From the NCBI GenBank assembly GCA_964016885.1, contig OZ024746.1:58094001-58158000 (forward strand): a stretch of 64,000 nt of DNA. Reading direction: 5' to 3'. Positions 3,039 to 62,727 of the stretch are shown here, piece after piece; positions within the stretch are counted from its first letter, which is position 1; every line of letters starts with the position of its first letter. This stretch comes from Eledone cirrhosa. Its lineage: Eukaryota. Position numbers and translations under genes: made by a program. A model generated the notes under the pieces. The model was not told the origin of the DNA. It saw only the letters and a program-made list of their open reading frames with translations, and did not search any database.

Positions 3039-3093
<55 letters not shown>

Positions 3094-3273
3094 TTGGGGA
3101 GGGTCATATTTGTGTAATATTGCCAGAATTAATAACAGAACACACTCACTGTTTGGTTGGTTTTCGCTTTTCGCTTCTGTGTCTTTTATATCGGTAATCT
3201 AATTTATTCGGTCCTCAATGTTGCCATTGACTGACCAACGGTCAAAAATAATACAGATACAATATAGACACAA

Positions 3274-3319
<46 letters not shown>

Positions 3320-4036: not shown

Positions 4037-4171
4037 GTGTATAATTTATATATATGTAAATACATATATATATATACATTATATGCATTATTATGTTGAC
4101 CAGTTTCGACGGCTATTTCTGAGTCCAGAAATAGCCGTCGAAACGGCTTGATCTCTGCCGCCGGGGTCATA

Positions 4172-4221
<50 letters not shown>

Positions 4222-4258
4222 TATGACCCCGGCGGCAGAGATCAAGCCGTTTCGACGG

Positions 4259-4305
<47 letters not shown>

Positions 4306-4440
4306 TATGACCCCGGCGGCAGAGATCAAGCCGTTTCGACGGCTATTTCTGGACTCAGAAATAGCCGTCGAAACTGGTCAACATAATAATGCATATAATG
4401 TATATATATATATGTATTTATATATATATAAATTATACAC

Positions 4441-7967: not shown

Positions 7968-8618
7968 ATCAATAAATGCAATGCAGGAATAATCAATCGT
8001 CCTTTTTATCCTTTCTATATTTTACACTTTATATAGCTCTACACATCATCACAGAAGTGAACCTAAACATCGAGTGCTCACCCGGGTGAACCTGCAGTAA
8101 CTCCTAGTTACACCCACTGGATATATATATATATATATAAATATGCATATATATATATACATTTATACATGGCGTGCTGTGTTGTTGCAATTGTGATATA
8201 CAAATTGAAATGAAGAATTAGAAATAGAAGCCAGAACACATCAGTGGTCTACTAGCCACCATAGGTATTTCTTCGCATTAAAGACCAGATACCTCAGGCT
8301 AGAGCGAACAATAACTAAAATACGTTATTAGGATAAAAAGAATTGGGTGGAGAAAGAGAGACAGGTGAACAAACATGAATGGTGAGGCAACCGTTGCCTG
8401 AGGTATCTGGTCTTTAATGCGAAGAAATACCTATGATGGCTAGTAGACCACTGATGATGGATAGTCCTGGGTTCTATTTCTAATCCTTCATTTTAATTTA
8501 TATATACATATCTGAAATAGCGATGTATACATGAATCTATGCATAGTATATTTGGCAATATACCATATGTTTAATTAAAAACATTTTGAAGAGCTTACGC
8601 TATCATTTTTAAAGTAGT

Positions 8619-8684
<66 letters not shown>

Positions 8685-8900
8685 ACTACTTTAAAAATGA
8701 TAGCGTAAGCTCTTCAAAATGAGAGCAAACATCACGGACGCTCTATCTCAAAATTATTTTTGAAAAGCATTAGAAATGCGCAATCTGTAAAACATAAAAT
8801 CAAAACTTAATACTAACCAATACTATTACTAATTATCACTTATTCCTAATTAAACTATTTTTCACCGTGAACAATTTGTCAGCATTTTCTATTCCGTTTA

Positions 8901-8984
<84 letters not shown>

Positions 8985-12450: not shown

Positions 12451-12508
<58 letters not shown>

Positions 12509-12590
12509 TTCTCTACGGTTCTTATATATCTGATATATATTTATCCTTATCGAGCCCTCTTTGGATTTTAGTCTTCAGATTTATTATTAT

Positions 12591-12638
<48 letters not shown>

Positions 12639-16186: not shown

Positions 16187-17609
16187 TATATATATATATT
16201 TATATATATATATATATAAATGAAAGGTATAGAAATTGTTTTAGCGACAAGCTAGTAGTATTCTATAACATATATATATATATATATACAGACAAAAGGT
16301 ATAAATGTAGTGTATCTATATATATTTACTAGCAGTAAAGCCCGGCGTTACTCGGGGTCGCTCAGTAGCTGTGTTAAAGTTACAATGTTAAGTTTCTTTT
16401 TTGGCTTAAAAACTGTAGTGTCTACTGTGCAGACTTGCATGTGGTGTTTTTGATTAATATTCCCTCAACCAACAATATGCCTTATGAAGTTAAGAAAACA
16501 TAACGATAACCCGAATGTTATAACAAAAGAGGATGCTGGGTATAAAAACTGCACTAGTTATTTATTAACAAAGATCGAAAATGTAAACACTGCAACGCAG
16601 AGAAAAACATTAGCGTAACCAAATTATCAGTTATTTTGAAACAAAGAAATTGGATGGACATGAAGAACTAAAAAAAAATGCGTTATCTGAAGTCGAGGGG
16701 GCAGGCAGCATCAAAGAGGTTTGCACTTGTGATAAAAAATATTGACAATGTAATAGCTCAGATGTTTAAGTATAAAGTATGAAGAGCTCATAACATACCC
16801 ATGGTGAGTTTGACGGGCAGATTATAGACAGCCACAGCATGCGAAATGGATAGCTGCAGCAAAAGCCATATTCACCAAAAAGAATCACTAAAATCAACAA
16901 AACAGAAATGCTGCTTCCATCTTCAGGTGCAACTGAGAATGATGACGAAAGTTTACTTTGACGCACCAGAAATGCTGTTGTCGCTTGTTGTCCATGTCGG
17001 AATGCATATTGAAACAATGAAAGAAATGACGGAAACAATCTGTGTATGTATGCGGCAAGTTGTGTGTGTCTATGTATTAAACGCCGGACTTGTCAGCGAC
17101 TGGAGGGGTGTCCTTAACAATCGAAAGCATCAATTCCAGAGTCCACTTTCACTTGCAAGCAATGCCGGGCCTATAGGTCTCGTGATGTGTCCTATGGTGT
17201 CAGAGGCGTTGTGCTTGTTAAGAAGTTGGCGTCATGTCGTCAGTTTCGAAGTTGCTGATGTCGCGTGTGTGTTAATGCATGAGCACGCATGTATGTCGTT
17301 CTTTTAACTGTGTGTGGGCGTATGTGTGGGTGCATATGATGGCGGTGTGTGCAAATACGAAGTGCGAATAAGTTTGTATATAGTTCTGTTGTTTGACATA
17401 TATTTGTACAATGGTAGACAATTCAAATGAGAAGTGATTCACTGTTGCATTGGTAACTGTAAATTACTCTGCAAATACACTGAAAGGTATGTCTAGGTGT
17501 CAATAGAATGCACTGCGTCAATGTTGAATATGTCTCCTTTTTTCAGGTTTCGTAGATGCTATATATTTAAGGCAGTTGGTGTAACATTGCCATTTTGAAC
17601 ATAAAAACT

Positions 17610-22801: not shown

Positions 22802-23052
22802 CGCCTATATCACCTCTCTGCATGGCTGTCTGTCTGCATGCCTATATCACCTCTCTGAACGACTGTCTGTCTGTACGCCTATATCACCTCTCTGCATGAC
22901 TGTCTGTCTGCACGCCTATATCACCTCTCTGCACGACTGTCTGCCTGCACGCCTATATCACCTCTCTGCACGACTGTCTGTCTGCACGCGTATATCACCT
23001 CTCTGTACGACTGTCTGTCTGCACGCGTATATCACCTCTCTGCACGACTGTC
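22802..23052. repeat. 37-bp subterminal minisatellite of the Helitron, about 7 copies
   Basis: Unit cgcctatatcacctctctgcacgactgtctgtctgca repeated; remnants also at 62236-62305. Confidence 0.9.
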
Positions 23053-23354
23053 TATGTAAACAGAACAAAGGGAAATAACTCGTCACTTACGCTCAAAAAT
23101 CGATACATTAGATTCGATTTCGTCACATAGGGTGAGTCAATTTGAAATATTTTTTTCCCGATGTCTTCGCTAGGGCTCTATGTACAAGTATAGCAATTTC
23201 GGTGCAATTCCGTCAGAGATTCTAAGAGGAGATGTGTGCCAAAAATCGATAGACAGACAGACAACCACAGCTTTATATATAGAGATTATACATACATATA
23301 CATACATATATATATATATATGAATATATATATATATATACACGTATCAACACA

Positions 23355-23394: not shown

Positions 23395-23784
23395 TAAAAG
23401 AATAGAGGTGTAACACACAAGTTATAATGTATTGGTAAACGGAAAAGAAAATGCTGACAAATTGTTCACAGTGAAAAATAGTTTAATTAGGAATAAGTGA
23501 GTATTAGTAATAGTATTGGTTAGTATTCAGTTTTGGTTTTAAGTTTTACCGGTTGCGCATTTCTAATGCTTTTCAAAAATAATTTTGAGATAGAGCGTCC
23601 GTGATTGAGCAAACATCACGGACGCTCTATCTCAAAATTATTTTTGAAAAGCATTAGAAATGCGCAACCGGTAAAACTTAAAACCAAAACTGAATACTAA
23701 CAAATACTATTACTAATTCTCACTTATTCCTAATTAAACTATTTTTCACTGTGAACAATTTGTCAGCATTTTCTTTTCCGTTTA

Positions 23785-23790
<6 letters not shown>
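23393..23790. repeat. Near-perfect palindromic element, about 176-bp arms and 9-nt spacer
   Basis: 23430-23605 is the inverse of 23615-23790. Bounded by (TA)n. Confidence 0.9.
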
Positions 23791-24736: not shown

Positions 24737-24852
24737 GATTAAATATATATTTGATGCAACACTGATTCTTTGTTTCCTAATCATTGTGTATATATATATA
24801 TATATATATATGGAGGAGGTTATAGTTAACTTGAAGCATTGTGTAATGAGGT

Positions 24853-25987
24853 ATAAACGTGTGTATATGTATAATAAAGCCAAAACAATGCAGGTATGGA
24901 CATAGAATAAAGAATGCAAATGTAACAGATATTGTTGACAATTAGGCTTTTACCTTAGATTTATTTAAATGTCCTTAATTTTCGAGATATCTCTTCTTGA
25001 GAGGGAAGTAAAGGTCTCAAACCAGTGTTCTAAATAGCTTGCCAAGTCATGCTGACAGGAAATGGTATAGAGTATCTGTTCTATCTCTAATGTCAAAGAG
25101 TTAAAATTAGGTGGATAAAGAGTAGTCTCCCTTTAAAAGGGGTTTGTTTTTGTTTTTTTTTGTTTTTTTATACATGCCTGTTTAAGTGTGTGGGAGAATG
25201 CATGAAGGTGTAAGTATGTGAGTGTGTGTGTGTGTGAGTTATAAAAGAACGCCTCAATACTAACGCTTCCTCATTTAAGAAACACCAAGTTAAATGCAAA
25301 AACACCGACAAAACGATAAAAGTTAGGATAGAAACTAGGGAAAGAAACCTCGGCAATCTTAGAATTAAGGAAGCACTAATTATAGATAAAACACAACCAC
25401 CAATCAATAATAGACTAGAACTCAACACCCAATTTATAACCTGATAGAGCTTCTAGCCCCATATTTACACCCCCCCCACACACACACACGCACGCACGCA
25501 CACACACACGCTTACAACTCCACTTATTCTCTCTCACACATACACACACAAAACCAGTTCTAACACCAGATAACACCTATCCCCCACATTTACGAATAGA
25601 CTTATCTTCTCACACACACACACTCACATACATACACCTTCATGCATTCTCCCACACACTTAAACAGGCATGTATAAAACAACAAAAGAAACAAAAAAAA
25701 AACCTTTTAAAGGGAGACTACTCTTTATCCACCTAATTTTAACTCTTTGACATTGGAGATAGAACAGATACTCTATACCATTTCCTGTCAGCATGACTTG
25801 GCAAGCTATTTAGAACACTGGTTTGAGACCTTTACTTCCCTCTGAAGAAGAGATATTATCTCGAAAATTAAGGACATTTAAATAAATCTAAGGTAAAAGA
25901 CTAATTGTCAACAATATCTTTTGCATTTGCATTCTTTATTCTATGTCCATACCTGCATTGTTTTGGCTTTATTATACATATACAAAC

Positions 25988-25992
<5 letters not shown>
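24853..25992 (+). mobile_element. Truncated PLE: inverted pseudo-LTR, GIY-YIG C-terminus, pseudo-LTR
   Basis: 24853-25240 is the inverse of about 25615-25992. 25241-25444 translates IKERLNTNASSFKKHQVKC...LRIKEALIIDKTQPPINNRLE. HHR at 25839-25873. Confidence 0.85.
25839..25873 (+). ncRNA. Minimal type I hammerhead ribozyme in PLE pseudo-LTR
   Basis: CCT-CTGAAGA-A-GAGATA(t)TATCTC-GAAAATTA-AGG followed by AATAAA. Mutated mirror copy at about 24972-25003. Confidence 0.75.
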
Positions 25993-26087: not shown

Positions 26088-26147
26088 CTATATATATTTC
26101 GGTGACAGCCATCTTTGGCTGTGACCTCTTCAGGTAGTCCGAATTAG
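26088..26147 (-). ncRNA. Type I hammerhead ribozyme
   Basis: Minus: CTAC-CTGAAGA-GGTCACAGCC(aaagat)GGCTGTCACC-GAAATATATA-TAG followed by AATAAA. Confidence 0.75.
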
Positions 26148-32929: not shown

Positions 32930-32936
<7 letters not shown>

Positions 32937-34245
32937 TTCAAAATATTAACAGAATAGATATTCTTGTAATCAAGTATATTTTATTATACATATTTCAGAG
33001 GTACTGAGTTAGGTTCAACAGTACGTCCTCGTCAGATAAAATAAGATGATGCATGACATACCCTGACATAGTAGATGGTTAAGATTCAGTCATGGTAGTG
33101 AGTAATATATGACAAAACTCAATATTTATACCCTAATATTGAGAACATGAGAAAAATATATAATACATACAATAGAGAGGGTGCGTGTAATACAGCTTAA
33201 AAAATACATGGCATCAATATAACAGTAAATTTTTTTTTTTAAACTACTGAAGAAAGAGGAAAGAAGGGAAAGCATAGCGGAAGAAACAGCTGATGGGATA
33301 ATATAGTTAGAAGGTGCCTCGAAAAACAAATGAGAGATGATTAAAGAGAGAGAGGGACAAAGGGGAGTAATTTATGTTTAAGTTTATAGAAAATTATCCA
33401 TATGTGCAATATATATCTAAACTTATTTTGTTGTCCGTTAATATTCAAAATATTTAATTAAAGCTATTTCAGAGTAATGAGTAATATTTTAGGCTTTAAA
33501 AGTTAATAGGTATCTGTATTAATATTATATTATACTATCAAGTTAAATTTCTAAAATTCAAATTTTATGAAATAAAATTTAAAGGATTTACGAAACACAA
33601 AAAAGAAAATATATAATGCTTTTATACCCTCACGAAGGTATTCTTTACCAAAATTATTTATAATATTGACAACAGTTTATATAATATAATTTATAAAATA
33701 ATTATAGTTATAATTATTAAAGAATTTATGATTAACAGTTTGAGTGCCTAAAGGAACAACAGACCTTATAATTAAACTTAAAGAAGTCTGAATTTTTAAT
33801 TATATATATGTGCTAATCAAAAAATACACAAGGATTATAATTAAAAAAGAAAAAAAATTTGAACTGTTACGTTGATGCCATGTATTTTTTAAGCTGTATT
33901 ACACGCACCCTCTCTATTGTATGTAATATGTATTTTCTTATGTTCTCAATATTAGGGTATACATATTGAGTTTTGTCATACATTATACACTTCCATGACT
34001 GAATCTTAACCATCTACTATGTCAGGGTATGTCATGCATCATCTTATTTTATCTGATGAGGACGTACCGTTGAACTTAACTCAGTACCTCTGAAATATGT
34101 ATAATAAAATATACTTGATCACAACAATATCTATTTTGTTAATATTTTGAATTAATATTAATAACTCTGGAAAACCTTTACTGTTGAGTGCTTCCAATCT
34201 GTAAAACTCATTATTTGGTGTATTCATTGAACCTCGTTTAACTTT

Positions 34246-34545: not shown

Positions 34546-36013
34546 CCACATTTTTCAATATGTATATATATATATTTGGTCTTGGTGTGCTGGAGTGTTG
34601 TAGTCTAATGGTGTTCCTATTTAAGATGGTTTGCTATTTATGTGTGGGGAAGTGTTTTCTGAGTAGGGCAAATAAGCTGCTAGCTGTTATTGTGGATACT
34701 GTTAAGTTGAATTGGGGTTATACCTACTTATAATTCTAGGCCTTCTTACGGCTGGGGCATCCCGATGTGTTATCCATGTATGAATATTTTCTCTTTGAAT
34801 CCGGCACGGATTAGGGCTTAATTTTAGTAATGGTGAGACTCACTAATAATATTTTCATTGACCGAGAGGCGCGATATTCTACGAGAAACGTTCCTGGTCA
34901 GATTCAATTGTACTCCTCGTCGTTCGGTGTTTATGTATATGTGTGTGTGCCTACATTTGTGTAACCTATGAATGGTTGTGCATTCCACAGGTACGCTTAA
35001 ACTTAACGTAATTGGCAGGGAGACCGAGCTTCATACCATGTGTGACAAAGAGATCCTTTCCAATTATAAAAGTCATTAGCGTTTCCGTCTACCCAGATAA
35101 ACTCTCAAGGCTTGGGTCAGATCGAGAGTAACTTAAATGCCACATATTGCGATAACACTTCGGGGATAATGATTGGGAAACGATCTTCAAACAATTCGGC
35201 GATGCCTACGTCTACATAGTGCATAAACAGCTTTTTGCAATGACTATCTGTTTCAGATTTCATTTTTTGATGGATACGATATATTTTACGTCAGTCCGTA
35301 TATCATTGATGAGATGTGTATTCGTGAAGTTATAAATTGCAGACACAATTTGATTAATATGATTAATACCCAATATACGTGTCATATTGTTGGTTTCATT
35401 CATAGATTCTATGTTACTTTAAATAAATAATTGAATTTGCCCAACTATAATACTAATATACTGCATTACAGAGACAGCTAATTTGGAAATGTCATCAATT
35501 TTAATGCGAAAACGATAGCTTGGAATGGAAAAATGTCGCTATATTACAGAAGAACGCACACACAAATAAACATGGGCAAGCATATATATATATATATTAT
35601 ATATATACATACATGTGTGTGTGTCTGTGTGTGTATATTTATATAATATATATATATATATATATAAATTGTTATACTTGGGGATGGTCATATTTGCGTA
35701 ATATTGCCAGAATTAATAACAGAACATACTCACTGTTTGGTTGGTTTACGCTTTTCGCTTCTGTGTCTTTTATATCGGTAATCTAATTTATTCGGTCCTC
35801 AATGTTGCCATTGACTGACCAACGGTCAAAAATACAGATACAATATAGACACAAACACATATATATAGTTTATCAAAGTTTTTTCGTTGCACATCTGCAA
35901 CATCGTCAGTGGTGCTATTGTTTCCTCCTGTTGCATTGCATTGTATTTACTACGCCATCTTTTTCTGAAAAAGATTGCGTAGAAAATACAATGCAACGGC
36001 AAGAAACACTATT

Positions 36014-36309: not shown

Positions 36310-36376
36310 TTTTATCTGATGAAAACACAGATGTTATTGTACGATGATATTTGTTTTTGAAATGCGCTTAATAAAA
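36310..36376 (+). ncRNA. Type I hammerhead in a short fold-back element
   Basis: TTTTAT-CTGATGA-AAACA...TGTTTTT-GAAATGCGCT-TAATAAAA. 36194-36232 is the inverse of about 36376-36410. Confidence 0.6.
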
Positions 36377-39780: not shown

Positions 39781-39834
<54 letters not shown>

Positions 39835-39917
39835 GGAATAGAATGAAACGAAATTTCATTTCTCACTCTTAGTACGGCACTTACATAAATGTGCTACCAT
39901 TTACACCAACACATCAT

Positions 39918-39989
39918 GATGTGTTGGTGTAAATGGTAACACAGTGGTCCGGATAACCAGTGATGTGGGCTCGACTCCCATGTACGTCA
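39918..39989 (+). other. tRNA-like sequence (pseudo-tRNA or SINE head)
   Basis: 72-nt cloverleaf: GATGTGT/GTACGTC acceptor, GTGT/ACAC D arm, TGGT-ccggata-ACCA, GTGGG-ctcgact-CCCAT T arm. Several non-canonical positions. Confidence 0.55.
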
Positions 39990-46716: not shown

Positions 46717-46854
46717 GTCAGCTTTCAGGCAGAGGTGTGGTGTTTAATCTCCCTAGGTAATAATATCTGGCGAGAAAAATGTTCTCCTTACCAAAAAAAG
46801 AAGACATAGATCATATCAACATCCTTACACACTTAAATATAAATGTATGTATAT

Positions 46855-46961
46855 ATAAACGGAAAAAATGAAACGAATTTCATTTCTCACTCTTAGTACG
46901 GCTGTTACTTAAATATAAGTATGTATACGTACATACATATATGCATACAGACGTACAGTAG

Positions 46962-47001
<40 letters not shown>

Positions 47002-47416
47002 CATGCACACATATATATATATGTACGCATGGATTCACCAAACATTTATTATAATGCTCGGTTTGTTTGTAAACAAACATTCCGAATTAAGCCGTACAGT
47101 GTCTAGCAACCATCGTTCCTCATTTGTTCAACACTGACAAAGGAACGATGTACTAGTTTCAAACTTATTAGCTATAGTCAACAACGTATACCTTCCTGCC
47201 AGATGGTTGAATGTGTGAAAGTATATACTTTCCTTATGCATATTAACGGCTAAGCAGCCTAATTTACATATCGAGTGAGTTAATCGGCCGGGGTACCGAA
47301 AGCGATAAACGGAAAAAATGAAACGAAATTTCATTTCTCACGCTTAGTACGGCTGTTACTTAAATATAAGTATGTATACGTACATACATATATGCATACA
47401 GACGTACAGTAGTATG

Positions 47417-47468
<52 letters not shown>

Positions 47469-47472
47469 CATG

Positions 47473-47546
<74 letters not shown>

Positions 47547-48227
47547 CATACATGCACACACATACATATGTACGCATGGATTCACCGAACATGTATTATA
47601 ATACTCGGTGTGTTTGTAAATAAATATCCCGAATTAAGCCGTACAGTGTCTAGCCACCATCGTTGCTAATTTGTCCAACACTGACAAAGGAACGCTGTAC
47701 TAGTTTTAAGCTTATTAGATGTCGTCAGCAACGTATACCTTGATGGTTGAACGTCTGAAAGTATATACTTTCCTTATGCATATTAACGGCTGAGCAGCCT
47801 AATTTGCATATCGAGTGAGTTAATCGGCCGAGGTACCGAAAACGATAAACCGATACACATATTTAAGTAACAGCCGTACTAAGAGTGAGAAATGAAATTT
47901 CGTTTCATTTTTTTCCGTTTATCGTTTTCGGTACACCGGCCGATTAACTCACTCGATATGCAGATTAGGCTGCTCAGCCGTTAATATGCATAAGGAAAGT
48001 TTATACTTTCAGACGTTTAACCATCTGGCAGGAAGGTATACGTTGTTGACGATAGCTAATAAGCTTGAAACTAGTACAGCGTTCCTTTGTCAGTGTTGAA
48101 CAAATGAGCAACGATCGTTGCTAGACACTGTACGGCTAAATTCGGGATGTTTGTTTACAAACACACCGAGCATTATAATAAATGTTCGCTGATTCCATGC
48201 GTACATATATATATGTGTGCATGTATG

Positions 48228-48315
<88 letters not shown>

Positions 48316-48370
48316 TACTACTGTACGTCTGTATGCATATATGTATGTACGTATACATACATATATTTAT
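46855..48370. mobile_element. ORF-less HHR-bearing tandem and inverted array (retrozyme-like)
   Basis: Two head-to-tail monomers on minus (46855-47850), then an inverted monomer (47860-48370). One HHR motif per monomer. Confidence 0.75.
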
Positions 48371-48443
48371 GTATATATACAAATGTATAAATGCATAGCT
48401 ATATACATACGTAAATGTATGTATATATGTATGTATGTAGATT

Positions 48444-51235: not shown

Positions 51236-53050
51236 ATATTTATTAAAATAACAGATTAAATTGTAAGCAAAGAATCGCTGCTTTCACCCTTGACGGGATA
51301 TTCTGAAACTAACAAATTCAATCTGTAAACGCAGAAGTGGATATTACAAAAAACGTTGCAACCGGAGCAAGACAGGAAGACGATACTTTGGTTCGTGGAA
51401 ACGTTCCCTATGCTAATAAGTAATGGTATAAACATAACATATACTTAGCTACCACATCAAGACGTAAAATATCCACGTATAGATCGTACTATCCGTTAGG
51501 GTATAATGTGGGGCTGTAATACAGGAAAGTTTTGTGCAATTTATGTTTACAAGCCGAAATTGCCTCAGATTTGTTGTTTAAGATGTGGTCTGTAGCGTAG
51601 AGTATGTCCAGGGCCTCAGCGGCGCAGAGGTCACATGGTCTTTTATTTTCGTTATACGATCTAGCTCTAGCTAGGGTCTCCCAGTGTAACTTATATTGGG
51701 TGTGGTTGACTTTTAGACTCCAGATATAAGCTGAAAGTGACGCCATATTCCTTCTTAGAGGGTAAGGAAAAGAATGGGTATGCAAGTAAAGACGCTGCTT
51801 GAATCTATTGGAGGTTAACCCTATGTAGGCCCTACGGGAAGTGGGTGTTTCAACCTTACATTTGTAGACAATGTTACTAGAGAGGCATTTCCCGGATAGG
51901 GGGCAATCAACCCGATTCCTACAATTACAGTTAGTACTAAATACAGGGCTGCACGTGTTCCTACGGCTAGGTAGTTTAGCTAAATTTGAAGCTGTGATGT
52001 TATGTGCAAGGTTAGGAGTCGTAGAGTAAAAAAATTTTATAGTATTTCTATTAAAAATGTTACTATATTTATGTGTAGGGGGAAAATGCTTCGTAACAAG
52101 GGATAGAAAGATCTTAGCCAATGGTGTGGCCACCTCCATATTATATGGTGGGTTATACCATATAATGCGACGGGATATATTTCTTCTAGGTCTATTCTCG
52201 TACTCTGTATATGCCACCTTATCAACAAATCCACTCCGAGCAAGAGCTTCATTGTAATAAGTGGAATGGTCGTTGAAAATATGCTCGTTAGTAGATAGAC
52301 TGGGAAACCTCAACGAAACGTTTCTTACCAGGTTCTTGGTTATAGTGGCAGGATGGTTGCAATGCTTACTTATGTAATTAAGCGTATCATTCGGCTTTCT
52401 ATACGGGTAATACACGCCATTTGATAAATTGAGGGTAACGTCGAGGTAATTAACGACCGAGAGGTCGTGTATGTTGAAGCCTTTATATCTGGAGTCTAAA
52501 AGACAACCACACCCAATATAAGTTACACTGGGAGGTCCTAGCTAGGGCAAGATCGTATAACGGAAATAAAAGACCATGTGACCTCTGCGCCGCTGAGGCC
52601 CTGGAAATACTCTACGCCACAGACCACATACTAAACAAAAAATCTGAGGCAATTTCGGCTTGTAAACATAAACTGCACAAAACTTTCCTGTATTACAACC
52701 CCACATTATAGCCTAACGGATAATACGATCTATACGTGGATATTTTACGTAGCTAAGTATATGTTATGTTTATACCATTACTTATTAGCATAGGGAACGT
52801 TTCCACGAACCAAAGTATCGTCTTCCTGTCTTCCTCCGGTTGCAACGTTTTTTGAAATATCCACTTCTGCGTTTACAGATTGACTTTGTTAGTTTCAGAA
52901 GATCCCGTTAAGGGTGAAAGCAGCGATTCTTTGCTTAAACTTTAATCTGTTATTTTAATAAATATTTGCTCTACGGTTCTTATATATTTGATATATATTT
53001 ATCCTTATCGAGCCCTCTTTGGATTTTAGTCTTCAAATTTATTATTATTA
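51236..53050 (-). mobile_element. 5'-truncated Penelope-like element with inverted pseudo-LTR
   Basis: Minus-strand RT C-terminus and GIY-YIG ORF. 52478-52965 is an inverted copy of about 51236-51730. Tail copies also at 12505-12595 and 53765-53925. Confidence 0.9.
51489..52460 (-). pseudogene. PLE RT thumb, Cys-rich linker and GIY-YIG endonuclease fragment
   Basis: NYLDVTLNL..YYPYRKPN, IIWYNPPY, CNCR..CPLSGKCL, NIVYKC..AYIGLT..FKQR, LSAYIWSLK, CDLC..E. Confidence 0.9.
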
Positions 53051-53051
53051 C

Positions 53052-53300
53052 TATCTATCTATCTATCTAAGGCGGGTAGAATTCCCGAGTTCTCTCCAGC
53101 GGTCTCTGTCCCTCATTATCGATGCCATGTCTTGCGTCTCCATCAGACCAGTGTCTGTCCGTAGGGCATCAACATACGTTAACCTTGGTCTTCTAGTGTG
53201 TCCATGTAGGGGCTCCCACAGGAGCTCTGAGTGCAATGTCAACTCTGGATGTCGGCGAGCATGTCCAGCTAACTTCAGTCTCCTGTTCATTGCTGTAGTG
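53052..53300 (-). mobile_element. RTE-type LINE 3' end
   Basis: RRLKLAGHARRH..LLWEP..RPRLTYVD..RDRDRWR, with (TAGA)n tail. Confidence 0.8.
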
Positions 53301-53681
53301 TATTGCAAAATACATTATATATACATCCATATATATATTGCTATTCCAGAGCTCCAATTCTAATTTTTAATTTCTGCCTGACCAACAACCGCTCTGCATA
53401 ATCAGCTCCTGATTATTTACTAGAATTCTATAAGAATATAACATCAGTGATCTCGGTAGACAGGTGGGAGTAGTTAGCCTTGATAAGCTTCAACAAAAGC
53501 GAAACAAGGTCTTGTGGGCTTATCTCCCCTGTTTGCTGAGATCAAAGTAAGTGAATCTGTCACTACTCTAAAAAACAATAGCTTACGGTCTTCAAAATGC
53601 TTTTAATTAAGCATAAAGTGTATTGCAAAATACATTATATATACATCCATATATATATATATTGCTATTTCAGAGGTCCAA

Positions 53682-53690
<9 letters not shown>
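53298..53690. repeat. Tandemly arranged repeat family, also at 58735-59332; fragment at 8582-8721
   Basis: gtgtattgcaaaataca.tatatatacat.catatatatat..gctatttcagag..ccaattctaat recurs about every 330 bp. Confidence 0.7.
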
Positions 53691-53756
<66 letters not shown>

Positions 53757-54003
53757 GTATATAGTAATAATAATAAATTTGAATACTAAAATCCAAAGAG
53801 AACTTGATAAGGATAAATATATATCAAATATATAAGAACCGTAGAGCAAATATTTATTAAAATAACAGTTTAAAGTTTAACCCAAGAATGGCCACCTTCA
53901 CACTTAACGGGATCTTCTGATGTTGGCAATTCCCCCTGCCAACCCCGCCCTATATATATATAATAATAATCCTACTACTACTACTAATAATAATAATAAT
54001 AAT

Positions 54004-57000
54004 GGAATGTCATGTGACAGATTCTCACCCAGCAGGTGCTCCCTGGCTCAGCAGCAGGGACCTGGCTGTCAGCCAAATACTGCTGGTGTCAGAGGAAGAA
54101 GAAGAAGAAGAAGGAAAGGGACCAGAACCAACTCGACGAAAGAATTGAATAGGACTGTTATGCAATGTTACCTGAAGAGTAACCCCAAGGAGAAAGGCTA
54201 TAGGAAACGGATGCATAACATCTGGAACGAGATTGGTCTATTTAAATTAGATGAACAAAAATTGGCCGGGCCGGCACGGGTAATAAGAACTAATGGGTGG
54301 ATAAGCGAGCTGGAACTGGAGGAACTGAGCTGACAGATTAGGTTGGAAATGGAAAGTGGAGTATGCCAGGCAAACGAGCCAGTGGGAAATGTAGGTGAAG
54401 AAGTTGAGAGAACGGACGAACCATCCGAAGCAGACAATGATCTGAATGCTGAAATAAATAATTGTTTCTACTTTAGGCACAAGGCCAGCAATTACCCAGT
54501 GCATTACTGGTACTTTATTTTATCGACCCCGTAAGGATGAAAGGCAAAGTCAACCTCGGCGGGATTTGAATGCTGAAATAAATAATACCTGGAACAAAGA
54601 TACGGCCATTGAGGAGATGAATGCTGACGGGCTAGGACAAGATTTGGTTGATATCCTAAACTTAGTGGTAGATGAATTGAACAATGAAAGTGGGAAACCT
54701 ATGAAACTAAGATTTGTAGACAGGAAAAAGTTAAAAGAACCAACAGCTAAGGTAAACAAAGTCATCCCATACCTTAAGGCAAGGAGCCTTCACCAGTGCA
54801 ACAATATCCTCAAAGCAACAGCAAATGCGGTGAGGAAATTACTTGGCATAAAAGAGACAGGAAACAACAAACAAGAAAGATCAGAACCTTGGTGGAAGAA
54901 TCGACTGAATGGTCAAATCAGGGAAATGAGAAATGACATTGGAAAGCTTGGGTCCCTAGTGAATGGGACACTAAAAAACATAGACACTAAAAATAGACTG
55001 GAAATAAAGTACAAAACTAGGAGGAAAAAACTAAATATTATCATAGAGGAACTGAAGCAACGCATTGTAGCAAAGAGTGCAAAAATTAGGCGCTACGAGA
55101 GCAGAGTCCGTCAGTATAGACAGAACCGCATGTTTGACAACAACCAGAAGATGCTGTTTGGACAGCTTGAAGGGAAAGAAAGAGGCAACGACTTGATCCC
55201 TGAGGCGGAACAAACTAAGACATTCTGGAGAGCAAAATGGGAGCAAGATGTTAAACATAATGACCAGGCAGTGTGGATTGAGACAGTACAAAACGAGATT
55301 AGTGAACAGGCACACCAACAAACTCATTTGAGTATCACAGTTGAAGCCATTAAGGGGCAGGCCAAAAAAACTAACCAACTGGAAATCGCCAGGCCCAGAT
55401 GGTGTGTAGGGTTATTGGATTAAAAATTAACATCCCTCCACCCGAACTGACAACCATGATCAATGACTGCTTGATGTCAGATGAGGTACCAGAGTGGTTG
55501 ACAAAAGGTACCACGGTTCTGGTAATGAAAGACGGAATCAAGGGTAATGATGTTACCAACTATAGACCTATCACATGTCTGTTCGTAATGTGTAAACTGT
55601 TGACAAGCATTAACTCTGAGGAAATCTACCATCAACTCCACACAAACAACTTGTTACCGGACGAACAGAAAGAATGCCGAAAGAAGTCCGGTGGTACAAA
55701 GGACCAGTTACTTATTGATAAGATGGTAATGAGGAATTGCAAGAGGAGACACACTGGTCTTGCCATGGGATGAATAGACTACAAAAAGGCATTTGAAATG
55801 GTGCCTCATTCTTGGATCACCAAAAGCCTAGAGATCTTCAAAGTGGCAGATAACATCAGACAGTTGTTGGGCAAAAGTAAGAAGTCCTGGGAAAGAGAGT
55901 TAACATCAGCTGGAGAATCCTTGGGAGGCGTGAAGATCAATAGAGGTATCTTCCAGGGAGATAGTCTGTTCCCTCTGTTGTTTGTCCTTGCCCTGATGCC
56001 CTGACCATTATACTGCGAAAAGTGAGAGCAGGATACATGTTGGGAAAAGGAGAGCTTACCAGAAGCAACGGAATCCAGGTATCAACAGGTGATATGATAG
56101 AGGAAATTGACACTGAAGAAGGATACAAGTATTTGGGTGTTCTGGAGGCTGATGACATCAAGAACAAAAATATGAAGGAATTGATAAGATCTGAATACTG
56201 GAGAGTAAGGAGCGTATTAAAATCACATCTGAACAGCAGGAATGCCATAAGTGCAGTAAATTCCCGAGCTGTGTCTATTATTAGGTACAGTGCGGGAATT
56301 CTGAGATGGAATGCTGCTGAACAAAAAGAAATGGATAGGAAGACTAGGAAGCTATTGACTATCTACAACATGTTCCACAAGAGGAGTGATGTCGATAGAC
56401 TCTGCTTAAGGAGATCTGAAGGTGGAAGAGGTCTTATCAGCATAGAAGACTGTGTTCAGATGGAGAAAAACAACCTACACAAATACGTGACTGATAGTAA
56501 GGAGCCAATGCTCAGAATTGTACTGAAGGAGAGGACAATTAACGAACGGATGTCCAAGGAGGAAATAACAAGAAGGAGCAGCCTTCATGAAAAATCCCTT
56601 CATATTACCGTCTTTGAGAAAACTGAATTCAGGTGTTCCACAGACATAGAACTGGTTGAAAAGAGGAGACCTTAAAAAGGCTACAGAAGGAATGTTAATG
56701 GCTGCGCAAGAGCAGGCCCTCAAAACGAAGTGGTTGAAACACCATATTTACAAGGAGGAAGCTAGCCCACTGTGCACAATCTGTGGAGAGAGAGAGGCGA
56801 CTGTGGCTCACATTGTATCCGATTGCAAACACCTAGCCCAGACTCACTATAAGGGCTGCAGGCATGATGTGATGGGCAGGGTGATCCACTGGCACCTATG
56901 CAAAGTAAACAATTTACCACAATCTGAGAAGTGGTATGAGCATAAACCAGAGTCGGTCATAGAAAACGATCAGGTGAAGGTGCTGTGGGATTTTAGGATA

Positions 57001-57424
57001 CAGACGGACAAGAAACTGGAACACAATAGACCTGACCTGGTGGTTTTGGACAAGGAAAAAAGATCGTGCCTGCTTGTGGATGTGGCCTGCCCATTCGACA
57101 CGAGAGTGCAAGAGAAGGGGGAGGGGAGAAAATTAACCGATACCAGGACTTAAAGTGGGAGGTAAAAAGGATTTGGAACTGCCATGAAGTCAAAGTGGTC
57201 CCGATTGTAATAGGCGCACTAGGTACTATCTCAAAAGGTTTCCAGGGATGGTTAAAGAAAATTGGCCCCGCCACGCTTTTTGGAACGCTTCAAAAGGCAT
57301 GCTTGCTGGGAACAGCAAGAACTCTCCGATACGTCCTGAATATCTGAGGCTGCAGGTAGTGGATTGATATTCATTTCAACAAACTTTCCAGTTAACTAAC
57401 ATCAATGACTGCGACTCAAAGAAC
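54004..57424 (+). mobile_element. Dong/R4-clade non-LTR retrotransposon (RT, CCHC knuckle, restriction-like endonuclease), degenerate, in (TAA)n
   Basis: NYRPITCL, GTKDQLLID, RGIFQGDS, YKYLGV, CTIC..TVAHIVSDC, RHD, RPDLVVLD..VDVACPFD, KINRYQDL, VVPIVIGALG. Flanked by (aat)n at about 53987-54003 and 57425-57442, the known Dong target. Confidence 0.88.
54463..54566 (-). mobile_element. 5'-truncated SINE A inserted in the Dong element
   Basis: Direct repeat tgaatgctgaaataaataat at 54443-54462 and 54567-54586. Confidence 0.88.
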
Positions 57425-58099: not shown

Positions 58100-58730
<631 letters not shown>

Positions 58731-59332
58731 TGGTACTTATCAAAGCCAATCTGAAATAGAGATATATATATTTTCAGCAAACAGGTGGTGTACTTGTCTT
58801 TGATAAGTACCAATCAGTACGAAACATAGCTCTGTAAGCTTTATCTCCCCTGTTTGCTGATAATTTAATGTAAGTGAGACTGTCACTACTTTAAAACAAT
58901 AGCATAAGGTCTTCGAAATGCTTTTAATTAAACATACAGTGTATTGCAAAATACACTATATATACATTCATATATATATCGCTATTTCAGAGCGCCAATT
59001 CTAATTTTCAATTTCTGCTTGACCGGCAACCGCTCTGTATAATCAGTTCCTGATTATTACTAGAAATTCTATAAGAATCAAACATTCATGATTTTCAGCA
59101 AACACATGGAGTACTTGGCTTTGATAAGTACCAATCAGTACAAAACATAGCTCTGTCAGCTGTATCTCCCTTGTTTGCTGAAAATTTAAAGTAAGTGAGA
59201 CTGTCTCTACTTTAAAACAATATCATAAAGTCTTCGAAATGCTACTAATTAAGCATACAATGTATTTCAAAATACACTATATATACATTCATATATATAT
59301 CGCTATTTCAGAGCGCCAATTTTAATTTTCAT

Positions 59333-59369
<37 letters not shown>

Positions 59370-59376
<7 letters not shown>

Positions 59377-60211
59377 GGAAAAAAGGAAACGAAATTTCAT
59401 TTCCCACTCTTAGTACGGCTGTTACTTAAATATAAGTATGTATACGTACATACATATATGTATACAGACTTACAGTAGTATGTATATATATATATATATA
59501 TACATACATGCACACATATATATATGTACGTATGGATTCACCAAACATTTATTATAATGCTCGGTGTCGTTGTAAATAAACATCCCGTATTAAGCCGTAG
59601 TGTCTAGCAACCACTGTTGCTCGTTTGTTCAACACTGACAAAAGAAGGCTGTACTAGTTTCAAGCTTGTTAGCTATCGTCAACGGTGGTTGCTAGACACT
59701 ACGGCTTAATACGGGATGTTTGTTTACAAACACACCGAGCATTGTAATAAATGTTTGGTTAATCCATACGTACATATATATATGTGTTCATGTATGTATA
59801 TATACATACTACTGTACGTCTGTATACATATATGTATGTACATATACATACTTATATTTAAGTAACAGCCGTACTAAGAGTGGGAAATGAAATTTCATTT
59901 CATTTTTTCCGTTTATCGTTTTCGGTGCACCCGGCCGATTAACCCACATGATATGCAAATTGGGCTACTCAGCCGTTAATATGCATAAGGAAAGTACATA
60001 CTTTCGGACGTTCAACCATCTGGCAGGAAGGTATACGTTGCTGACGATAGCTAACAAGCTTGAAACTAGTACAGCGTCCATTTGTCAGTGTTGAACAAAC
60101 GAGAAACGGTGGTTGCTAGACACTACGGCTTAATACGGGATGTTTGTTTACAAACACACCGAGCATTATAATAAATGTTAGGTGAATCCGTGCGTACATA
60201 TATATATGTGT
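59370..60211. mobile_element. Second array of the same retrozyme-like family
   Basis: Minus arm 59370-59683. Plus arm 59684-60211 is more than one 424-nt monomer (ggtggttgctagac at 59684 and 60108). Confidence 0.75.
60035..60077 (+). ncRNA. Minimal type I hammerhead ribozyme, canonical core
   Basis: ACGTTG-CTGACGA-T-AGCT(aaca)AGCT-T-GAAA-CTAG-TA-CAGCGT: 6-bp stem I, stem II, palindromic stem III, GUA site. Confidence 0.85.
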
Positions 60212-61311
60212 TGGATTTAGAACGTAGCACAATGGAAAGCATCCAGCAGATAGCTAATTCCATACACCAGAGTATAACTGTCACTATCCTCTACCCTTCC
60301 AAACACCCTAAGAATAGATTACCTGTATTAGACACGGAACTCTGGATTAGCACTATAGACGAGAGAGCCCAAATTCTCCCCTCACACTATGCTAAACCCA
60401 TGGCCTCCAAATACCTGATACTGAAAAACTCAGCAATGTCCAGTATTGCTAAATTTAATATTCTGATCGCAGACTTGGTACGAGTGATGAAGAACGTGTC
60501 CCGCATGTGCGACCCAACAGAAATGGAAAGAGACATCCAACACTTCATCACCTGCATGCAGTTCTCTGGCTACAACCAAAGAGACAGAGTCAGAGTATAC
60601 GAAGGAGCCACGGAGAAGTATAAGACCCTCATAGAACTGGACATAAAAGGAATTTGCCCATTATACAGGAGCAAATCATGGAATAGATTAGATAGGGCTA
60701 GACATAAGATAGGGAAAGCCACCTGATGGTACGACAACCAGAGATACCAGAGTGTCATGTTTGTGGATGCTACTCCTGAAGGAAAATTAGCTAACCAGTG
60801 TAAAAAGGCCCTGAGAAAGACCCACTTAAAGATTAAGGTGGTAGAAAAGCCAGAAACCACCATAAAATCCCTGATCAGCAAAACCTACCCTTTTACGAAA
60901 ACCCACTATACTAATAGGAAATGTATCAAATGTAAGGTAAACCCCCGGATAGACTTTAAAACTAGAAACGTAGTCTATAGCATAAGATCTACAGAGGGTA
61001 CTTGCAGAAACATGACAACAACATACATAGGCGAGACAGCTCGTAGCATAGGTGAAAGGATAGACCAACACTGGGGGGAACTAAAAGGACGAAAAAACGG
61101 ATCAGTACTATACGAACATGCCAGACAACAACATGACGGTAACATAGACAACATAGAAATTAGAATAATATCTAAACATAGAAATGACCCAGCAGATAGG
61201 CAAATCAGAGATGCCAGTGAAATAGAACTTAGAAGGTCAAGGATAAACAGAAAGAATGAATGGAATAACAACAACACCCAAACAAACAACACTGACCTAA
61301 GAGAAGTATAA
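60212..61311 (+). pseudogene. PLE RT C-terminus and GIY-YIG endonuclease with one in-frame TGA
   Basis: ORFs 60175-60726 and 60757-61311 are in the same frame and separated only by TGA at 60724-60726. Confidence 0.85.
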
Positions 61312-61571
61312 ATAAATAAAGAGATAAATGAATAAATAAATACATACACAAGCACAATAACAACAAATACATATAAACACACACTAGTAAAGATAGAATA
61401 CATTAACCAATACACAGTAACCCAAACACGAACACACATCAAACAAAACACTATACACACACGCAAACGCATGCGTAAAGAAGACAAATAAAATAAACAA
61501 ATAAATAAATATATAAACAGACTAAATAAAGATGGTTTAGAAAATACAATGCAACGGGAGGAAACAATAGC

Positions 61572-61612
61572 ACCACTGACGATGTTGCAGATGCGCAAGG
61601 AAAGAACTTTGA
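61572..61612 (+). ncRNA. Degenerate hammerhead downstream of the PLE ORF; better copy at about 35872-35915 minus
   Basis: CTGACGA-TGTTGCA(ga)TGCGCAAG-GAAA. The copy reads CTGACGA-TGTTGCAGATGTGCAAC-GAAA. Confidence 0.55.
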
Positions 61613-61817
61613 TAAGCTATATATATGTGTTTGTGTCTATATTGTATCTGTATTATGTTTTACCGTTGGTCAGTTAATGGCAACATTGAGGACCGAATAA
61701 ATTAGATTACCGATATAAAAGACACAAAAGCGAAAAGCGAAAACCAAACAAACGGTGAGTATGTTCTGTTATTAATTCTGGCAATATTACACAAATATGA
61801 CCCTCCCCAAGTATAAC

Positions 61818-61857
<40 letters not shown>

Positions 61858-61930
61858 TATGTGTGTGTGTGCGTGCGTTTAAGCGTTAAACGATAATAGA
61901 ATTATAATGAATTTATTTCTTTATTGTTTA

Positions 61931-62727
61931 CTAGCAGTAAAGCCCGGCGTTGCTCGGGGTCGCTCAGTAGCTGTGTTAAAGTTACAATGTTAAGTTTCTT
62001 TCTTGGCTTAAAAACTGTAGTGTCTACTGTGCAGACTTGCATGTGGTGTTTTTGATTAATATTCCCTCAACCAACAATATGCCTTATGAAGTTAAGAAAA
62101 CATAACGATAACCCGAATGTTATAACAAAAGAGGATGCTGGGGATAGAAACTGCACTGGTTATTTATTAACAAAGATCGAAAATGTAAACACTGCAACGC
62201 AGAGAAAAACATTAGCGTAACCAAATTATCAGTTATGTCTGTCTGCACGCCTATATCAGCTCTCTGCACGACTGTCTGTCTGCACGACTGTCTGTCTGCA
62301 CGCCTAACGACGAAATATTTGCTTGTTTTACGTAGTCTTTAAATAGACTTGTTTTCAAGTAAAAATATTGTTTTAAAATGCTTTTAAATGGAAATGAAGC
62401 AAAACGGAAGCTTAGTGTTCGAACTGATGAATTTTGCAGGTCAATATTTTGCTGGCTCGACGAAAGCCAGCGTAATTGTTTACGTAAGACGCTCAATGTA
62501 AACAGAACAAAGGGAAATAACTGATAACTTACGCTCAAAAATCGATACATTATATTCGATTTCGTCACATAGGGTGGGTCAATTTGAAATTTTTTTTTTC
62601 CGATGTCTTCGCTAGGGTTCAGTGTACAAGTATAGCAATTTCGGTGCAATTCTGTGAGAGATTCTAAGAGGAGATGTGTGCCAAAAATCGATAGACAGAC
62701 AGACAACCACAGTTTTATATATATAGA
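61931..62727 (-). mobile_element. Non-autonomous Helitron, deletion derivative of the 16329-23285 family
   Basis: About 305 bp near-identical to 16329-16634 (CTAG end and hairpin) and about 230 bp near-identical to 23055-23285 (TC end). Inserted between A and T. Confidence 0.93.

Follow-up and report, generated by a model that had tools for sequence, protein, structure and literature searches.

Animal non-LTR retrozymes (PMC7229834; 10.64898/2026.07.22.740005) are built of non-coding tandem monomers with type I hammerheads and lie beside Penelope-type elements (PLEs), as does the repeat family A described below. Mobilisation of these retrozymes by PLEs has been proposed from co-occurrence and from homology between terminal repeats (PMC7229834; 10.64898/2026.07.22.740005), and the available text of the two papers contains no mobilisation experiment. 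Of 57 retrozyme families in Xenopus, 24 match known elements at the terminal repeats; these elements number 22, of which 21 are PLEs, according to the accessible part of the preprint 10.64898/2026.07.22.740005. Canonical PLEs with a C-terminal endonuclease (EN+) are described in PMC8557442 as having, like our family B, a terminal repeat with a hammerhead-like motif, inverted 5′ pieces and (TA)n targets. A further comparison is offered by the U6/LINE-1 and Alu/LINE-1 chimeras (PMC13174262), in which, as at the locus presented here, a sense non-coding copy lies 5′ of an autonomous element that is truncated and about equally old; 452 Alu/LINE-1 chimeras were called there by their target-site duplication, with passengers that are mostly full length. 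Among the titles and abstract openings listed in a survey of the literature, none reported a retrozyme–PLE chimera.

In the window, that is, the whole stretch of 64,000 nt of Eledone cirrhosa DNA that was analysed, two distinct Penelope-type mobile families, A and B, abut without a gap. Both elements are new, and both are of already known kinds. The composite sits between two (TA)n tracts without assigned strand, at 59339-59373, where a 321-nt tandem family (C) ends as well, and at 61819-61855, in the order A minus arm, A plus arm, B, and both 3′ ends face outward onto (TA)n. The left arm of A (59371-59681, minus strand, 311 nt) extends from inside the hammerhead core to the fixed 3′ end of the family on (TA)n, and the right arm (59681-60211, plus strand, 531 nt) amounts to 1.25 monomers of 424 nt. 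At 60210-60211, on the plus strand, A joins B with no spacer and an overlap of about 2 nt. Family B continues on the same strand with a 5′-truncated PLE ORF remnant (60210-61311) and a 3′ UTR plus terminal repeat (61312-61822), and A is not resumed beyond the right tract. Since the composite is flanked by (TA)n on both sides, a target-site duplication around it is unreadable. Compared with the U6 and Alu chimeras with LINE-1, as far as the available text describes them, the composite thus has no readable target-site duplication, and it further differs in a passenger without its natural 3′ end, in an extra inverted arm, and in that no recurrence is found among the listed read joints.

An earlier note on this DNA had reported (TA)n on either side, a 424-nt retrozyme-like monomer, an intact hammerhead at 60035-60077, and an array passing straight into same-orientation coding sequence of a truncated GIY-YIG PLE at about 60211. 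This description is borne out by the coordinates of the two tracts, by the recurrence of 59681-59788 at 60105-60212 with 95% identity, by the full hammerhead core and stems, by an alignment of PLE relatives covering the end of the reverse transcriptase (RT), the thumb, the linker and a GIY-YIG that is C-terminal, and by A sequence up to 60211 with tblastn matches from 60217-60220. The note had missed the 311-nt inverted A arm, B's own 3′ repeat with its hammerhead-like core, and the loci in the window that hold A only or B only.

Family A has a GC content of 0.38, and its open frames, all of them short, mark it as non-coding. It is strongly self-paired, with a fold z of −6.02 and none of 100 shuffles equally stable. 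The complete minimal type I hammerhead at 60035-60077 (plus strand, predicted cut after 60071) has its core beginning at 60041, a stem I of 6 bp with one G-U (60035-60040 with 60072-60077), a stem II of 4 bp closed by U-U, and a stem III formed by the 6-nt palindrome ACUAGU. This is the minimal type found in PLE motifs and not the canonical one; PLE hammerheads in the part of File S2 of PMC8557442 that was accessible have a similar layout, and hammerheads of this PLE type have been proposed to act as dimers (PMC4209133, in part). The isolated motif folds no better than shuffles. Rfam returned no hammerhead at gathering level in the window and none at E<=10 in 58700-62200, and at the composite region gave sub-threshold matches only, chiefly to hairpin miRNA models. 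DNA patterns of the A hammerhead had no match in metagenome or viral contigs. The features that A has in common with retrozymes are the type I hammerhead, short tandem monomers, a GC content below 45% and strong self-pairing. Li et al. (10.64898/2026.07.22.740005), in the accessible text, call a retrozyme active when it holds two consecutive complete hammerheads; in A, one of the five copies in the window is complete, and two consecutive complete ones are absent. Family A differs from the non-LTR retrozymes in its minimal PLE-type hammerhead, in its head-to-head insertions and in a fixed 3′ end on (TA)n, and also in that no cognate PLE was found for it in the window. Family A resembles a non-LTR retrozyme or a non-autonomous PLE derivative.

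A second A locus, without any PLE, lies at 46853-48372 and consists of about two minus-strand monomers starting from the fixed 3′ end plus one plus-strand monomer that ends internally, in AT-rich sequence. The monomer junction of A is identical at both loci, and the tandem joint was recovered in 230 reads with 16 starts. A short A fragment on the minus strand (39829-39893) has the same 3′ end on (TA)n, and three window copies together with 28 contig loose ends at 59916 define this fixed end. Adjoining the short fragment is a tRNA-like sequence (39918-39989), the sole Rfam match at gathering level in the window. As judged from these sequences, family A shows insertion on (TA)n with a head-to-head geometry of the PLE type. 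The three A arms at the composite have 6 substitutions in common over 272 columns and a 2-nt gap relative to the second locus, and because these changes are common to all three they can be treated as one unit. Loose contig ends were also seen at 60008 and 60099, where the A hammerhead region matches and both sides diverge; such contigs could belong to a sister family or to the terminal repeat of an autonomous partner of A. A BLAST comparison of A with B and with ten other window segments gave no terminal-repeat homology, the matches with B being of low complexity only.

The ORF remnant of family B comprises the end of the RT core, the thumb, a cysteine linker and the C-terminal GIY-YIG region, and with one in-frame stop and lost cysteines the copy at the composite is dead. 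The GIY-YIG was read from the alignment to full-length relatives, two of which have Pfam GIY-YIG hits, the composite's copy itself having no Pfam hit. The closest named relative of the fragment is an Octopus vulgaris protein with 59% identity, and protein searches for B sequence upstream of the junction found nothing closer than this match. In the 3′ repeat of B there is a hammerhead-like core at 61576-61603, within a motif spanning about 61567-61620, of which stem II is damaged at the composite and intact in a solo copy at 35666-36011; the assignment of its stems I and III is our own reading. That solo copy (minus strand), a terminal repeat, carries a short inverted piece of its own that has an internal end, and it lies between (TA)n tracts with no A present. 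At a third B terminal piece (3093-3287, minus strand), also without A, the 5′ end merges into a TA target at the internal TA block of B. With solo copies of each in the window, families A and B are independent of one another. Both are highly repeated in four public sequencing runs; in run X1 the summed depth of four A bins is 4.3 times that of eleven B ORF bins, a ratio that is not one of copy number. Relatives of B were not found in viral contigs, and five metagenome loci of such relatives carry no convincing terminal hammerhead.

The group of B's relatives is broad, with 302 representatives at E<=1e-30, and shows a CX4CXXC linker after the RT thumb, a CCHH-type GIY-YIG and a DKS motif. The endonuclease is C-terminal in 98 of the 99 relatives that have both domains, protein P0162 having it in front. 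The spacing from RT3 to RT4 is 120-144 aa (median 132) in the 53 of 217 proteins (P0001-P0217, relatives of 60214-61290) in which it was measurable, a value read from relatives only, the composite's copy being truncated past this region. For comparison, counting by eye in Fig. S1 of PMC8557442, one of the parts of that paper at hand, gives about 60 for Neptune, about 84 for Naiad and 118 for human TERT. The cysteine linker is a feature that B's relatives have in common with Neptune and Nematis, clades described in the available text of PMC8557442 with a CCHH and no insertion in the fingers; the RT3-to-RT4 spacing of the relatives, at a median of 132 aa, is longer than the 60 or so of Neptune. 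They depart from the Hydra clade (no CCHH, a CxCX5C linker, DKT and no IFD) by their CCHH-type residues, CX4CXXC linker, DKS and long insert, and from Naiad and Chlamys, reported with an N-terminal endonuclease, in the C-terminal position of this domain in the window copy and in the 98 relatives. Six motifs of the lineage were not found in the listed text of the supplement to PMC8557442, and titles and abstract openings yielded this paper only on PLE clades with an IFD. Solved-structure and Atlas searches returned generic RTs or unnamed clusters only. B's relatives, which were not matched to a clade of PMC8557442, may constitute an undescribed PLE lineage that combines a C-terminal GIY-YIG with a telomerase-sized insert in the RT fingers.

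At the junction itself, the identity of A holds through 60211, and four related proteins begin in tblastn at 60217-60220 in the same orientation. A multi-copy contig from another organism matches B from 60210 and apparently continues upstream in non-A sequence; in our reading of the match tables, it is the A match to 60211 together with this contig match from 60210 that yields the overlap of about 2 nt. Family A breaks off 129 nt before its fixed 3′ end, directly after a short TA block, and intact A monomers have a longer TA block about 10 nt past the composite's break. There is no remainder of A to the right of B and no upstream B coding sequence elsewhere in the window, which together exclude a simple nesting with both halves kept. 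A 14-nt TA-rich match between the junction and the 3′ repeat of B was discarded, its 13-nt core occurring 29 times in the window.

When the divergence ages of the two parts were compared, as the earlier note had suggested, A and B proved indistinguishable, at 2.8% each with wide intervals. The A arms at the composite carry 18 private changes in 640 sites (2.8%), a count that covers the three arms and leaves out the TA block, and the terminal repeat of B there carries 5 in 179 (2.8%, interval 0.9-6.4%), as against 1/179 and 3/179 in the two other B copies. The corresponding figure at the second A locus, 31/769, has misaligned columns at the ends counted in and was kept out of the comparison. 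An apparent age gap (the B ORF at 4.8% from contigs belonging to two other organisms and the A arms at 2.8%, P of about 0.06) was rejected because the like-for-like figure for A is 5.0%. Equal ages are to be expected from one event or from two, both families having been active during similar periods.

Read joints provide a further view of how B ends. Among the 15 joints listed of 283, 13 are B-B, one is the A-A tandem and one, at 60210/60387, is ambiguous; the simplest way to read it is as B-B, since 60210 is where the match of B to the stretch ends. In 8 of the 15 the 5′ break of B is joined to B's own inverted end, and internal skips also occur among the B joints. A same-strand joint from A to B is not among these 15 of 283; all those listed come from one RAD run and form a small sample biased to RAD sites, and with 0 of 9 partners being A, the share of A is bounded only below 28%. 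The read starts are presumably linked to a restriction site. None of the 24 pieces listed, besides which there are 19,200 more, spans the A/B junction, which carries no weight either way.

The end of A is not confined to A. Family E, a head-to-head non-coding element at 23432-23787, ends with A's 11-nt terminal motif, as does its copy at 8723-8903; a further E copy was noted at 2562-2911, the elements reaching about 350 nt. Over the last 40 nt, A and E match best among 28 pairs, with 11 nt, a length that 34 of 20,000 shuffles attained. The 9-mer ending A occurs eight times in the window, five times in A and three times at ends of family E. The ends of A and B have 4 nt in common. The A/E motif thus suggests a common helper other than B, and A's helper is likely to be another PLE with an end resembling that of A. 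The Xenopus terminal-repeat matches likewise lead one to expect a helper that resembles A, which B does not. In O. vulgaris 31 recently active PLE families have been counted in the part of PMC13282606 available, so that candidate helpers may be many, if the host is similar.

The window is rich in repeats and holds many head-to-head families besides. An element at 32933-34155 has a hammerhead-like core in each arm (33035 minus, 34053 plus), and a core looking similar lies at 36316. What is likely another 5′-truncated PLE-like copy, at 24811-25990, lies between (TA)n tracts and carries an inverted end of its own, of 365 nt, and a hammerhead-like core was seen at 26097-26133. Family F (51240-52961, 52895-53052, 53763-53920 and 12508-12591) has inverted arms of 490 nt and a hammerhead-like hairpin with one base changed in the core. 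Small head-to-head elements occur at 4088-4389 and 8202-8499, the former being recent, because its arms are 100% identical over 88 nt. Family C, with its 321-nt unit (58724-59331 and 53297-53687), ends on (TA)n and at its other end joins LINE-like DNA without a TA spacer in both copies; the hammerhead core pattern was not matched in it. Broken LINE-type ORFs are present at 55774-57347 and 58274-58717, of which one matches zf-RVT weakly and is tailed by (TAA)n, the other being a fragment that starts on a long (TA)n. To the right of the composite, at 61918-62726, lies a repeat with internal short tandem units, found also at 16315-16634 and 22802-23284 and 97.5% identical to a second copy, which we take to be Helitron-like.

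Our preferred reading, at a probability of about 0.62, is that A and B inserted one after another at the same TA-rich site; the odds attached to this and to all other readings are our judgement and not computed. The concept behind a head-to-head A unit is twin priming. For the priming steps and the order of insertion we infer that some PLE enzyme would have copied family A as a head-to-head unit, with priming at the fixed 3′ end for one arm and inside A, at its TA block, for the other. A copy of B would then have primed on the (TA)n at the right edge of A, become 5′-truncated and joined A at its 5′ end via the 2-nt microhomology, with a few bases removed; the reverse order, in which B was the older and A landed on its TA edge, would give an identical sequence and is included. 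Microhomology joins at the 5′ end have been described for Penelope (PMC3846280), and one PLE was found in vitro to prime internally on AT-rich targets and to cut both strands (PMC11167929), as far as the accessible parts of these papers go. Successive insertion is favoured by the second A locus, which has the same design of one fixed-end and one internal-end arm without a PLE, by the position of the A break beside an internal TA block, the type of target used by B, and by the third B copy, which meets its TA target through such a block. It is also favoured by the listed 5′ partners of B, mostly its own inverted end, by the lack of a terminal sequence common to A and B, and by family C, which in two cases abuts other repeat DNA with no TA spacer in between. 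With 45 merged TA tracts and three insertions each of A and B, the chance of site sharing is 0.18 (0.10-0.34) in a model that is post hoc and covers the shared site, not the seamless join. Against successive insertion stand the equal ages of 2.8%, as a single event predicts, the junction without a TA spacer and with no remainder of A to the right of B, and the fact that the composite's B lacks its frequent inverted end and has the inverted arm of A in that place.

The earlier note had instead proposed a template switch during one insertion. Here the RT of B, from the apparently undescribed lineage, would, once primed on the (TA)n at the right, have copied B RNA to 60210 and jumped to an internal site in the unrelated hammerhead RNA of A, the product being joined head-to-head with an A copy primed at its natural end on the left (TA)n, and B could then mobilise A. 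The seamless same-strand join with its overlap of about 2 nt, the equal ages and the sense orientation of the passenger fit such an event, and the outline of the unit as a whole, with 3′ ends outward, is that of a canonical PLE (PMC8557442, section 6, in part); passenger/LINE-1 chimeras exist in mammals (PMC13174262), and template jumps have been proposed for Penelope (PMC3846280), in the accessible text of both. Yet the equal ages, the orientation and the outward 3′ ends follow from two insertions as well, and A is joined internally, 129 nt short of its end, where full-length passengers are the usual case for U6 and Alu (PMC13174262, available text). Terminal sequence is not common to A and B, whereas Xenopus retrozymes match PLE terminal repeats, a second same-strand joint from A to B is absent among the 15 listed of 283, and in Adineta PLEs of the EN+ and EN− types were not seen to mobilise one another, in the part of PMC3846280 at hand. 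We therefore regard a single event as unlikely, if worth keeping in mind. More doubtful still is that the two families inserted apart, with intervening DNA, and were fused by a later microhomology-mediated deletion. The final 129 nt of A and the entire 5′ part of B are missing at a single point, with a 2-nt overlap, and internal skips do occur in B read joints, but an extra event is required, and internal A arm ends and 5′-truncated B copies arise without such a deletion. That A is simply the 5′ pseudo-LTR array of B, and the locus one ordinary PLE, is largely refuted and very improbable: an inverted arm, a partial tandem, an ORF and a terminal repeat do make a textbook PLE, but A has no homology to the 3′ repeat of B, solo copies of B bear their own end, and the multi-copy B contig appears to extend upstream of 60210 in non-A sequence. 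The alternative that the earlier note had named, nested insertion, ranks as the likelier account in the form of successive insertion, simple nesting with both halves kept being excluded.

Because sequential landing in one TA-rich spot is the most likely course of events, the junction probably does not reveal the enzyme that moves A. The claim that it identifies the mobilising enzyme is weakened by the internal breakpoint, the PLE-free A unit and the lack of a common 3′ motif in A and B, and a helper–parasite inference from the junction is weak. If the insertions were sequential, the junction itself is ordinary. Were a single event true, the genome would directly attest the mobilisation in trans of a retrozyme by a PLE with which it has no terminal sequence in common, and a proven one-event chimera would name an enzyme–RNA pair to reconstitute. 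The locus as it stands offers a pair that can be tested, and the better lead would be a PLE whose end is like that of families A and E.
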